Assembly (NCBI GenBank): GCA_951406725.2
Contig: OX597831.1
Coordinates: 23,436,001 to 23,500,000 of the forward strand
Direction: 5' to 3'
Source: Octopus vulgaris
Taxonomy: Eukaryota
DNA: 64,000 nt
This document shows, piece after piece, positions 23,841 to 58,395 of this stretch. Position numbers and translations under genes: made by a program. Numbering within the stretch: position 1 is the first letter of the stretch; each line of letters begins with the position of its first letter. A model generated the notes under the pieces. It saw only the letters and a list, made by a program, of their open reading frames with translations, had not been told where the DNA came from and ran no database searches.

Positions 23841-24022
23841 TTCTTTGTGTGTGTGTGTGTCTTACCATTTCTATCAATACACACACACATATATATATAT
23901 ATATATATATATATATATATGTATATATATATAAAATTGAATAAGGGTAGAAATTGATATTAATCAATTAAAACCAGTGGCCTAGCATCTTAAAAAAATC
24001 CAAAGATGAAAATATTTTTTAC

Positions 24023-24180
24023 ATACAAAATTTAAAGGACTGACCACTAAAAGTGGACAGTCAATATGCTAGATATAGACGTCAAAATCACTATTTTCTT
24101 CGTGGAAAATAGCGATTTTAATGTCTATATCTAGCATATTGACTGTCCACTTTTAGTGGTCAGTCCTTTAAATTTTGTAT
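24023..24180. repeat. Inverted repeat (76-bp arms, 6-nt loop) inside (TA)n
   Basis: 24023-24098 vs 24105-24180, three mismatches, loop ttcgtg. Confidence 0.93.
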
Positions 24181-24296
24181 ATATATACATATATATATAT
24201 ATATAGACTTATATATACATACAAATGACTTCTTTATTAGGATGCTTGTCTCCAGTATACATCTTTAATTCATCATTTCTATAATGCAAAAATATT

Positions 24297-24336
24297 CTAA
24301 TCTCATACCTTTTTCTATCATCTTTTGCAGGTAAGG
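24297..24336 (+). promoter_or_regulatory. Candidate recursive splice site (3'ss fused to 5'ss)
   Basis: Branch-like ctaat, pyrimidine tract, then cag|gtaagg. No other AG between 24256 and 24328. Confidence 0.45.
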
Positions 24337-24724
24337 AGAATCATTTTTTGCTTTATATGTTTGCTTGTTCCCTGTAAAACAACAAATATAAGAAAAGAAA
24401 AAGAAAAAGGAAAGTATAATAAAGAAAAATATTTAGGTATGTATTTTAAACACAGATATTTATTATCATAATTCTAATGCCCGGGAGACTTTTGGAACCT
24501 TTCATTTCATTTCTTATCATTTAATATTGATTTTTTTAATACTTTTTTCTGAAATTTGATTTTGCATAAACTTTCCACTATTTTTGTCATGATTTCATAC
24601 AAAATAGAGCAAAATATATTTTGTAAGTATTAAACTTATAAAACAATGTTATTAAAGAGATAAGTTTTACTCTTCCTAACTGAATTTTATAATAAAAGCA
24701 TCAAGTGACGAAGGAAAAGAAATG

Positions 24725-25570
24725 CATGTCTCTACCTGCCTGTCTACCTGTCTATTGATCTATTTGTCTGTCTATTTGTCTATCTATTTGATCAATCAAT
24801 CTATCTGTTTATCTGTCGATCAGTCAGTCAGTCTCTCTCTCTAGTTATCTATCTATTGACTGGTCTATCTGTCTATTTATTTATTTATTGATTGATCTCT
24901 CTGTCCATCTATTCATCTATCTATTGATCTGTCTACCTGTCTATCTATTTATCTATTCGTTGGTCTGTCTGTTTACCTAGAGATCAGTCTGTCTATCTAT
25001 CTATTTATCTATTGATTGATCTCTCTGTCCATCTATTCATCTATCTATTGATCTGTCTACCTGTCTATCTATTTATCTATTCGTTGGTCTGTCTGTTTAC
25101 CTAGAGATCAGTCTGTCTATCTATCTATTTATCTATTGATTGATCTCTCTGTCCATCTATTCACCTATCTATTGATCTGTCTACCTGTCTATCTATTTAT
25201 CTATTGGTTGGTCTGTCTGTCTGTTTACCTATAGCTCAATCTGTATGTCTGTCTATCTATTTATCTATTGATCAGTCTCTCTGTCTATTTATCTATCAAC
25301 CAGTCTGTCTGTCTATTAATCAGTCTGCCTACTTATTTATCAATCAATCTATTCATCTATTGATCAGCCTATCTGTCTATCTATCTGCTTATCTATCAGT
25401 CAGTCTGTTTCTTTAGTTCTCTATTGGTCAGTATGTCTGTCTATCTACTTATCTGTCTTTATGTCTATTCTACCTATATATCTAGCTGTCTCTATTGATC
25501 TCCCAGCCTATCTGCCTGCCTGTCTTTCTGTCAGTCTGATTATCTGTCTGTCCATCTGAATGTCTGCCTT
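24725..25570. repeat. Degenerate (CTAT/CTGT)n with a 124-bp higher-order tandem unit (~3 copies)
   Basis: gatctctctgtccatctattca recurs at 24894, 25018 and 25142. Confidence 0.9.
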
Positions 25571-25594
25571 CTTTGTTTCCTTCCAGTTTCAGTA

Positions 25595-25880
25595 CACAGA
25601 CATGTGTACCCTTATGATAGTTCTCAGAGAAATTAACATGCTGAGCACTCCACAGACACATATACTCTTAAGATAGTTTTCATAGAAATTAAGCAAGACA
25701 CAGAATATGACAAGCATAGCCCTTTGAAATACAAGTACAACTTATTTTTGCGAGTTGAATGGACTGGAGCAATGTGAAATAAAGTGTTATACTCAAACAC
25801 ATAATTCACCCCTAGGAATTGAACTCACGTCCATATGATTGAGACCCAGATACCCTAACCACTGAGCCATGTGCCTTCAT
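25595..25880 (-). mobile_element. SINE with family B head/CORE and a different 3' tail
   Basis: 25740-25880 matches the family B head and CORE. 25595-25740 (gagcactccacagacac...ccctttgaaatacaag) is unrelated to the family B tail. Confidence 0.7.
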
Positions 25881-56050: not shown

Positions 56051-56409
56051 TCAACAATATAAAATGTTACAGGAGTTTAGTCTTTAGCAAGTATAAATAC
56101 ACTCACATATACTAACCAACGTATATGTGTATATGTACACATATGCAAGTCAGAAGGTACATATTCACAAGAGACATAAACACAGTCATATACATGCATA
56201 AATGATTGCCTAATTGATGTTGTCTGAATGTCTGTGAAGGAATCTTGTTTTGTAGGCTGGAAACTAGCTCTTTCTCTGTTGGGGAGAAATTTTATAAATG
56301 AAATAAAAAGCACTTGACTTACATATAGGCTTATATAAGAGTTACAGTCCATATATATTTCTCTCTAATGGAAAGAAATTCGAATAATCAAACCATTACA
56401 ACCTACATA

Positions 56410-56610
56410 CAAAGGTGTGCTGAAAAGTTTCTGGCTTTAAGGGTATCATGAAAGGCCTAGCTGGAGCCCTAGCTTTCAGAGTTCTTTTACAGGGCTAAAA
56501 AAACTGAAGGACTGCTGCACTGAGAGGGGAATAAGTTTAATAGAACCATTATTAGCTGACCCCACTGCATTTTCTTTTACTGACAGCCAGAAACTTTTCA
56601 GCACTCCTTG
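56410..56610. mobile_element. Tc1/mariner-type MITE
   Basis: TIRs caaaggtgtgctgaaaagtttctggct / agccagaaacttttcagcactccttg, with TA on the left flank. Confidence 0.8.
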
Positions 56611-56694
56611 AACACCTGTAAATTTACAGACGTATATAAAAATTCACATATAATTTCATGCATATATACATATAAAAATGCATTCATAAATGCA

Positions 56695-57147
56695 TACTCT
56701 TTTACTTGTTTGAGTCATTTGGCTGCGGCCATGCTGGAGCACCGCCTTTAGTCGAGCGAATCGACCCCAAGACTTATTCTTTCTAAGCCTAGTACTTATT
56801 CTATCAGACTATTTTGTCGAACTAAGTTACGGGGACATCAACAAACCAGCATCAGCTGTCAAGCGAAGTTGTGGGTGACAAACATAGACACACAAACATA
56901 TTCACACACACACATACATACATATATATACATATATATATATATATATATATATATATATATATATATATATATATATATATATACAACGGGCTTTTTT
57001 CAGTTTCTGCCAACCAAATCCACTCACGAGGCTTTGGTCGGCTTGAAGCTATAGTAGAAGACACTTGCCCAAGGTGCCACACAGTGAGAATAAACCCAGA
57101 ACCATGTGGTTGGTAAGCAAGCTACTTACCACACAGCCACTCCTGCA
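56695..57147 (-). mobile_element. SINE family A, full length
   Basis: Reverse complement of 58396-58815. Confidence 0.9.
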
Positions 57148-57555
57148 CATATATAGATTTTCATCCATTCTTTATTCTTTTTAGTTAGTTTTCATCATGA
57201 TCTTGTACACACGTATACATATATACTCATGTACACACACATACACACACACACATGTAGCACCAATGAGCTGTTGAAGCAAGATTCTTTGTAGCCCTGC
57301 GAAACATTCATTGTAGTAAATATATCCAAAGGACGAATAGTTTACAATGAACTCCTCCTTGTTGACCATCTTTAAAATGGTGTCCAGTTTGAGGTAACAT
57401 GACTATCAGACTATTAAATGTCAAGGTGATAAGTGGAACGTCTGTATGGTTGTTTGATATAGTAGAAAATTAGACATGCTTGTATGTGTGTGTGTGCATT
57501 TGCTTGTTTGAGTGTGTGTGTATATGAGCGTGTGTGTGTGTATTTATATAAGAAA

Positions 57556-57820
57556 AATAAAAAACAAATAAATGCACCCTTTTAAAGCCTAGCCAGGCTC
57601 ATGGGCCCGGTTTCCCGGTTTCTATGGCGTATGTGTCCCCCACCTGGACAGGACGCCAGTCCATCGCAGCGTTACTCATTTTTACCAGCTGAGTGGACTG
57701 AAGCAACATGAAATGAAGTGCTTTGCTCAAGAACACAATGTGTCACCCGGTCCAGGAATCGAAACCAGAATCTTACGATCATGATGCTGACACCCTAACC
57801 ACTAAACCACGTGCCTCCAC
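57556..57820 (-). mobile_element. SINE, family B head/CORE plus tail type E
   Basis: 57574-57679 is nearly identical to 54092-54198, and 57680-57820 matches the family B head. TSD att(t/c)atataagaaa at 57542-57555 and 57821-57834. Confidence 0.85.
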
Positions 57821-58395
57821 ATTCATATAAGAAACAAGTTGAAAATAAGGGTCATTACATATTTTCATTTATTGGAGCAAATGTAATAACCATTGTTTTT
57901 AACTTGCTTCTTATATACCAATCTGTGCGAAAACCAGTTTGCTTGGAGCCCATCCATGGATCTAACACATGGAATTGTGATGAACCATAACCTTGGACCT
58001 TGCCACAAGTTTATTCGGAGTTCTTCACTAAGCTAAATAATATTGTTTGCCTGGTGTACCAACAGAGAGCTTATGAAGTATTTTGTCTGGATTGATAATT
58101 CCTCATTACTTGTTCTGTATATATATATATAAATTGAAGTCATAATATATTGATTAAAGTAATCCAGTGGTAGTCATGGAAAGAACTTTCTTTCACCTGA
58201 GGACATAGCTTAAATTCACAATTATTTTGAAGGATCTTCGCAGTTTGTATTAAAGTAAGCATGCAGGTAATTTATTTATTTATTAGATAAAACAATATAA
58301 ATTATTTACATGCTTTCAATTACAAAACAATTGGTCAAGAAATTAGTACTTCATTATTGTTAAATAAAATTTCCTCATCTACATCTTCATTAATG

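Follow-up and report, generated by a model that had tools for sequence, protein, structure and literature searches.

Penelope-like elements (PLEs) are the closest mobile relatives of telomerase reverse transcriptase (RT). Here we describe an RNA motif that recurs in a stretch of 64,000 nucleotides (nt) from Octopus vulgaris (contig OX597831.1, positions 23,436,001 to 23,500,000; hereafter the window) and that is the conserved, base-paired 3' domain of thousands of non-coding Penelope-type elements. In these hammerhead-bearing units the domain probably acts as a docking structure, at which an RT supplied in trans starts synthesis within two zones that we call I and T.

The closest described systems are cited here for the accessible portions of their texts. 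Animal non-long terminal repeat (non-LTR) retrozymes are proposed to derive from the pseudo-LTRs (pLTRs) of PLEs and to be moved by PLE proteins (PMC7229834; bioRxiv 10.64898/2026.07.22.740005); like the octopus units they are non-coding tandem units of low GC, contain a type I hammerhead and are dispersed both as monomers and in short multimers. The octopus units are longer (430-540 nt versus about 225-390 nt), have a helix II region of 40-73 nt and a 3' domain that covaries and in which two end zones have been mapped, and, unlike the circular RNAs (circRNAs) of retrozymes, are known from genomic sequence alone. Endonuclease-positive PLEs (PMC8557442) likewise form partial tandems whose repeat contains a hammerhead, lie beside an inverted copy truncated at its 5' end and have a tail on one side only; Hydra and Naiad also share the (TA)n target. 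By contrast, the octopus units lack an open reading frame (ORF) and have a structured tail of about 80-100 nt in place of 30-40. In the papers found, in vitro work on how a PLE chooses its template start covers one element. The protein of Poseidon PAc from Anolis, a predicted dimer, cuts and extends both strands; reverse transcription begins at two internal positions within a stem-loop that lies 3' of the hammerhead, these positions bound the tail, and hammerhead cleavage is not needed in vitro (PMC11167929). The octopus units resemble Poseidon in having two putative starts 3' of the hammerhead with the tail between and in the presumed use of both target strands. The stem-loop with the Poseidon sites, however, is AC-rich and part of the ORF, and the sites have no homology to the target (PMC11167929), whereas the zones described here, placed from genomic ends only, are A/U-rich linkers of a non-coding multi-stem domain and show a partial U-A overlap with the target. 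The element class (retrozyme, PLE pLTR, tail) and the pattern of fold-backs with a tail are already known.

The original prediction, made from the letters of the window, was of a functional RNA element at Penelope-like termini next to (TA)n, and our analysis bears this out, in that the structure is selected, belongs to the sense strand and has covarying stems. A 15-nt pattern joining the 3' strand of stem P1 to the core CCACUGG, RTGCTRGGCCACTGG, has 2,777 matches in the genome versus 0 for the reversed control, and a P1-independent anchor has 2,748 versus 7; copy numbers given here rest on such pattern matches. Two samples were analyzed, namely 30 pattern loci, which favour T ends because the core was required, and 97 distinct anchored copies from 90 loci of one contig (most of the first 100 places listed). 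Both fall into several diverged families, about seven.

Where copies run on, the units stand head to tail and measure 457 nt (family A) to about 510 nt; pattern spacings give about 430-540 nt overall. The longest ATG-initiated ORF was 29-76 amino acids (aa) in all seven unit stretches tested, so the units have no coding capacity. The 3' domain is preceded, in the same orientation, by a type I hammerhead motif: of the 97 anchored copies, 75 have GAAAC...GUH and 43 the full hammerhead core, counts that are affected by the 5' truncation of many copies. Helix I has at least four of its six pairs in 41 of these 43, the helix II region is the long one given above, and loop 3, read by eye, is short and mostly palindromic. 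The variant core CCGAUGA occurs in 4 of the 97. Among the families, G combines this variant with a 73-nt helix II region (L156, L171, L197, L237; L numbers are our locus handles), and E has an insertion of about 125 nt in the helix II region. The motif had been placed in the hammerhead position of PLE-like modules; this part did not stand, since the family A copy of the window begins inside an upstream hammerhead at 46122, and in the 12 copies having both, the hammerhead cut lies 159-200 nt before CCACUGG. The hammerhead cores CUGANGA and GAAA are absent from the P0-P3 domain itself. A Naiad origin was considered and rejected, because Naiad elements lack canonical hammerheads and full motifs are present here. 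The pattern of PLE insertions (PMC8557442) is matched by the fold-back pairs, the partial tandems and the flanking (TA)n, and by their sequence the units fit the animal non-LTR retrozymes (PMC7229834; bioRxiv 10.64898/2026.07.22.740005; PMC4209133). The family A sequence (L021:1446-2145) is present in sequencing runs of at least three organism labels, with no RNA run among those listed, and is therefore probably common to related species.

To describe the fold we aligned 21 copies, comprising 16 of 22 clusters (86% identity) and 5 added copies; the six clusters left out were a family B copy, a false match, a near-duplicate family A cluster and three with deletions or insertions. At a mean column identity of 61% among the aligned families, RNAalifold unaided returned P1 (9 base pairs) and a third stem, P3 (7 base pairs), with 8 of the 16 pairs changed on both sides. 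P3, which is opened by the GG of CCACUGG, is absent from the original prediction, which also lacks the upstream hammerhead, the small P2c hairpin and what is probably an outer stem, P0 (GUG with CAC). P2c, the family C hairpin P2b and P0 were added by hand, giving a named 30-pair structure in which 90.3% of cells are paired and 12 of the 30 pairs are double-changed, a value reached by 0 of 500 shuffles, while slid controls pair 30-48%. The covariation first seen in P1 thus extends to double-changed pairs in both P1 and the new P3 across about seven families. The suggested bias of wobble pairs toward one strand is also present, and the 49 G·U against 12 A·C favour a sense RNA. A covariance model built from the alignment recognizes family B, on which it was not trained (E 3.7e-5 for the copy at 23974-24073(-)). 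These data bear on whether the motif is one ordinary repeat that decays neutrally and merely inherits its pairing. Many copies are indeed degenerate, and those at 28620 and 44773 are not functional, but families as diverged as these keep P1 and P3 by double changes and the untrained family B is still recognized, so that neutral decay is largely refuted and deserves next to no credence.

The heptamer CCACUGG was named as a part of the motif. It adjoins the 3' strand of P1; its exact form occurs in only 19 of 40 copies, most of it is paired, and it is replaced by CACCUGG, UCACUGG or CCGCUGG throughout some families. The conservation of P2c is no lower. A few unpaired U residues are near-invariant, the one between CCAC and GG being kept in 35 of the 40 copies. 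The 5'-bulged A of the P2 hairpin does not generalize, as it was found in 11 of 88 hairpins, 10 of them from family A, in a rough scan that sometimes started too early. One option offered for the motif was a new self-cleaving motif. The compact multi-stem fold without an Rfam match and the well-conserved unpaired positions would suit such a ribozyme, yet each unit already has a hammerhead motif, the proposed core is largely paired and varies among amplified families, the bulged A is a trait of one family, and fold-back arms have scattered 5' ends that do not pile up at the motif; going by the sequences, a new ribozyme is very unlikely. Rfam gave no gathering-level match in the window and no ribozyme match up to E 10 in two units, returning only microsatellite-driven microRNA matches and weak small nucleolar RNA matches, but this blank is weak because hammerheads with a long helix II, those of families A and C, also escaped the Rfam hammerhead models. 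Within the same weak test, which compared family models only, the failure of the motif to fit HDV-like, twister, pistol or hatchet consensus sequences was reproduced, twister-sister included.

The other option, a structure recognized by an RT, fits the mapping of copy ends. Copies end in (TA)n at two zones, I in the A/U-rich linker within the P1 loop and T just after P3. Among the 94 copies that aligned (97 examined), 47 end at -60 to -21 relative to the core and 39 run through P3 to end at +40 or more from the core start, with none ending between -7 and +34 and 8 ending elsewhere. In this first map end coordinates drift into (TA)n; once refined for I ends, they place 31 of 41 at -55 to -39. 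The two arms of a fold-back insertion follow a near-strict rule, as the 45 examined comprise 38 I/T and 2 I/I pairs and no T/T pair, the remaining 5 having an end of another kind. In the P1-independent subset, which is free of the sampling bias, there are 23 I/T, 2 I/I and 4 others, so that I/T accounts for 23 of the 25 fold-backs in which both ends are classified (p ~1e-5 against 0.5). Some units run past T (L009, L012, L077, L237) and have, about 20-30 nt downstream, a second stem with an inner hairpin, for which folding z-scores are mixed (-4.3 to +0.3 in 10 copies).

It could be that the end zones are set only by runs of alternating U and A that pair with nicked (TA)n, and that selection maintains the fold for a different RNA function, for instance to stabilize the circle or monomer or to help the hammerhead fold. 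Alternating runs of at least 3 nt occur at 23% of linker positions versus 4% of upstream positions, and 23 of the 41 I ends share at least 3 such letters with the target, so microhomology explains part of the end pattern; retrozyme circRNAs are moreover predicted to be highly self-paired (PMC7229834). This explanation nevertheless leaves the 38 I/T versus 0 T/T fold-backs unaccounted for, and 16 of the 41 I ends share only 0-1 letters with the target. We regard it as rather unlikely.

The docking reading, by contrast, may be put most simply as a Poseidon-type reaction (PMC11167929) on a non-coding template, by analogy with the two start sites found for Poseidon in vitro, with which the two end zones seen here agree. 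The unit would be transcribed as a multimer or circle, and a GIY-YIG/RT dimer would bind the fold and nick both strands of (TA)n. One 3'-OH would then prime at T and the other at I, aided by a few U-A pairs in the exposed linker, and joining of the two cDNAs would give a fold-back. Its arms would differ by the stretch between I and T, and this stretch would correspond to the Penelope tail. Binding by the RT, priming and the contribution of each stem are all conjectural parts of this scheme, as is the supply of the enzyme in trans, probably by a Hydra-clade element.

Hydra-clade elements are the best candidates for that partner. Like the units, they use (TA)n targets and the same hammerhead type, and their pLTRs likewise place a structured region, with two end positions, after the hammerhead. 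Several Hydra-clade families, young and intact, occur in the same genome with open ORFs of about 720-955 aa; the ORF of L061 has the DKT motif, the CxCx5C linker and CxxC/CxH. Families A-D and G give no detectable match to Hydra pLTRs by blastn or covariance model; family E is the only one with a Hydra-type GAGUACU, which adjoins a P3-like hairpin. A link between the 3' domain and Hydra is plausible though conjectural.

As observations on the Hydra clade itself, at least six PLE families have open ORFs and near-identical copies (L061:1914-4781, L315-L344) and recent activity is therefore probable. In their pLTRs the modules have the form ACUC..GAGU-ACY or ACCC..GGGU-ACC, and the loop frequently contains long insertions. 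In one lineage (L061:1900-1960, 7030-7080; L066, L085, L067, L071) a pLTR stretch is antisense to the ORF start, so that an inverted 5' copy puts an in-frame ATG-bearing segment before the ORF. The CCACTGG found in the pLTR of a Hydra family with a 727-aa ORF stands in a different context, 50 nt after the cut, and was taken as coincidence.

A set of 77 marine metagenomic Hydra loci (L238-L314; 32-42% protein identity to the query) extends the comparison. Among the 40 informative cases, a GCUC-loop-GAGCACU hairpin follows the hammerhead in 35 and occurs twice in 23, versus 5.7% in shuffles. The twin hairpins, one about 60-70 nt and the other about 115-135 nt past the hammerhead cut, closely precede the ATG (e.g. 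L261:283-357), and their GCUC and GAGC are nearly invariant; the same hairpin is found in published coral and sea cucumber consensus sequences, with variants in a copepod. Of eight Hydra copies with an alignable reference, three end 2-4 nt before GCUC, two are contig ends and the remaining three break elsewhere, against more distant references. RNAalifold found no pairs in 22 marine Hydra pLTRs because variable loops misalign GCTC, and no Hydra model was therefore built. Although speculative, it is possible that these twin hairpins have a more elaborate version in the twin-start docking fold, on which an RT dimer would prime one strand at I and the second at T.

The inverted repeats and the dyad CCA-N-TGG of the octopus motif might also act at the level of DNA, serving as an endonuclease recognition or resolution site. 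In addition to the Hydra GCTC/GAGC, this would accommodate the good folding of both strands, and the tail of D. virilis Penelope is needed for endonuclease recognition (as cited in PMC11167929). Family G, however, breaks the dyad (CCGCTGG) yet restores the P0 pair (AGCGG with CCGCU), other amplified families read CACCTGG or TCACTGG, and the wobble bias favours a sense single strand. We consider a DNA site improbable.

Several results weigh against the reading of the motif as a docking fold served by a Hydra-type RT. With Hydra queries and one Neptune-like C-terminal query, no contiguous sense ORF linking RT and GIY-YIG was found near motif copies. Adjacency to such ORFs, which had been raised at the outset, was not borne out, as RT and endonuclease fragments near copies are interrupted or belong to other insertions. 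In a blastn comparison of the units with the Hydra loci collected only separate insertions matched, none of the Hydra ORFs whose downstream sequence was examined carries the 3' domain, and the covariance model matches neither family E nor the Hydra pLTRs. With regard to the fold, the shuffle control overstates significance because the families are related, and folding z-scores do not separate the two strands. P0 is the weakest stem, having only the compensatory event of family G and not being predicted by RNAalifold from the 21-copy alignment. As for the ends, zone I is about 20 nt wide and not a single point, and the overlap of I ends with the target, described above, finds no parallel in Poseidon, which initiates without target homology (PMC11167929). 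Separately, the RT and endonuclease pieces beside L010, L077, L195, L211, L216, L231, L237 and L349 were examined as candidates and look like separate insertions into shared A/T-rich targets.

No account of the covarying domain, of its link with two end zones, of the I/T rule or of the twin hairpins of Hydra turned up in the literature searched, though paywalled papers, Repbase, figures and bioRxiv supplements could hold one. The accessible parts of PMC8557442 were not found to describe the twin hairpins, and none of the 31 places with CCACTGG in its supplement has this context. What makes the domain of interest is that thousands of non-coding parasites of PLE machinery keep little beyond cis signals. 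Their covarying fold and near-strict one-of-each end rule offer defined stems and compensatory pairs to work on, and the same genome contains intact candidate enzymes. If the proposal is true, the twin-start fold would be a general RNA-structural cause of the Penelope tail and of fold-back insertions, as well as a portable signal by which non-coding RNA can be copied into (TA)n.

All five strings of the original prediction are present in the window (Table 1), and two of them, at 46203-46320(+) and 23974-24073(-), are genuine full copies from the diverged families A and B. The latter was noted to read outward from a palindrome centre, and it does sit in a fold-back insertion. Two others proved to be stubs. 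That at 44773(-), with 91% identity to family B', is a 3' stub of 54 nt carried within a larger repeat of about 800 nt that has 39 other genomic matches (91-94% identical); in those copies of the carrier that were inspected both flanks are shared and the 5' strand of P1 is absent, so it is one captured fragment and not an independent instance. The stub at 58164(-) belongs to the more distant family E, whose usual core is CTACCGG or CTACTGG; because only 8 of 52 family E pattern matches have C at the second core position, its CCACTGG is partly mutational. The string at 28620(-) was not confirmed as a member, having no other genomic match (the single candidate was itself), no core, no covariance-model match and a resemblance to family A of only E 0.57. 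CCACTGG occurs 17 times in the window versus 4.5 expected, and 13 of these lie in other contexts outside the predicted instances. The CUGAUGA half missing from the hammerhead of the window's family A copy is present in other family members (L007, L021).

Table 1. Motif copies, their parts and related features in the window (window coordinates).
Feature	Position	Strand	Remarks
Family A copy	46122..46351	+	5'-truncated inside hammerhead; ends after P3 (terminal end T); between (TA)n runs
3' half of type I hammerhead motif	46122..46134	+	AAAC, palindromic loop TGATCA, GUC cleavage triplet
Conserved post-hammerhead segment	46152..46171	+	Its family form is the P1-independent anchor
5' strands of P0 and P1	46198..46210	+	P0 strand is GUG
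P2 hairpin	46213..46232	+	Bulged hairpin of the original prediction; bulged A specific to family A
A/U-rich linker	46233..46282	+	Contains internal end zone I
Small hairpin P2c	46283..46292	+	Directly 3' of zone I; among the best-conserved columns
P1 3' strand and CCACUGG	46306..46320	+	CAC pairs in P0, GG opens P3
P3 hairpin	46319..46340	+	End zone T about 10-15 nt 3' of P3
Family B direct arm	23933..24100	-	Terminal end T
Family B direct arm, P1 5' strand	24073-24066	-	
Family B direct arm, P2	24062-24038	-	
Family B direct arm, P2c	24007-23998	-	
Family B direct arm, core	23980-23974	-	P3 extends to 23946
Family B inverted arm	24101..24180	+	Same fold-back insertion; ends at internal zone I
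Captured 3' stub, family B'	44736..44789	-	P1 3' strand, core, P3; in carrier repeat ~44318-45112
Family E 3' stub	58129..58180	-	Core-like 7-mer and short P3; terminal end
Family E inverted arm	58181..58395	+	Hammerhead core CUGAGGA at 58197-58203; degenerate GAAAC...GUC near 58323-58336
Hairpin without core	28620..28707	-	Fourth instance of the original prediction; unique; membership not confirmed

Other repeats of the window were also noted. The carrier repeat at 44318-45112(-), which holds the captured retrozyme 3' stub, is non-coding, has at least 40 copies and combines a TA-rich head with (TCTG)n. It is often followed by an A/T minisatellite of 11-12 nt, located in the window at 43317-44315. 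The head and the (TCTG)n of the carrier repeat may recall non-autonomous Helitrons. Finally, CUGANGA...GAAA candidates at 4179(-) and 13440(-) belong to another repeat family and are unrelated to the motif copies.

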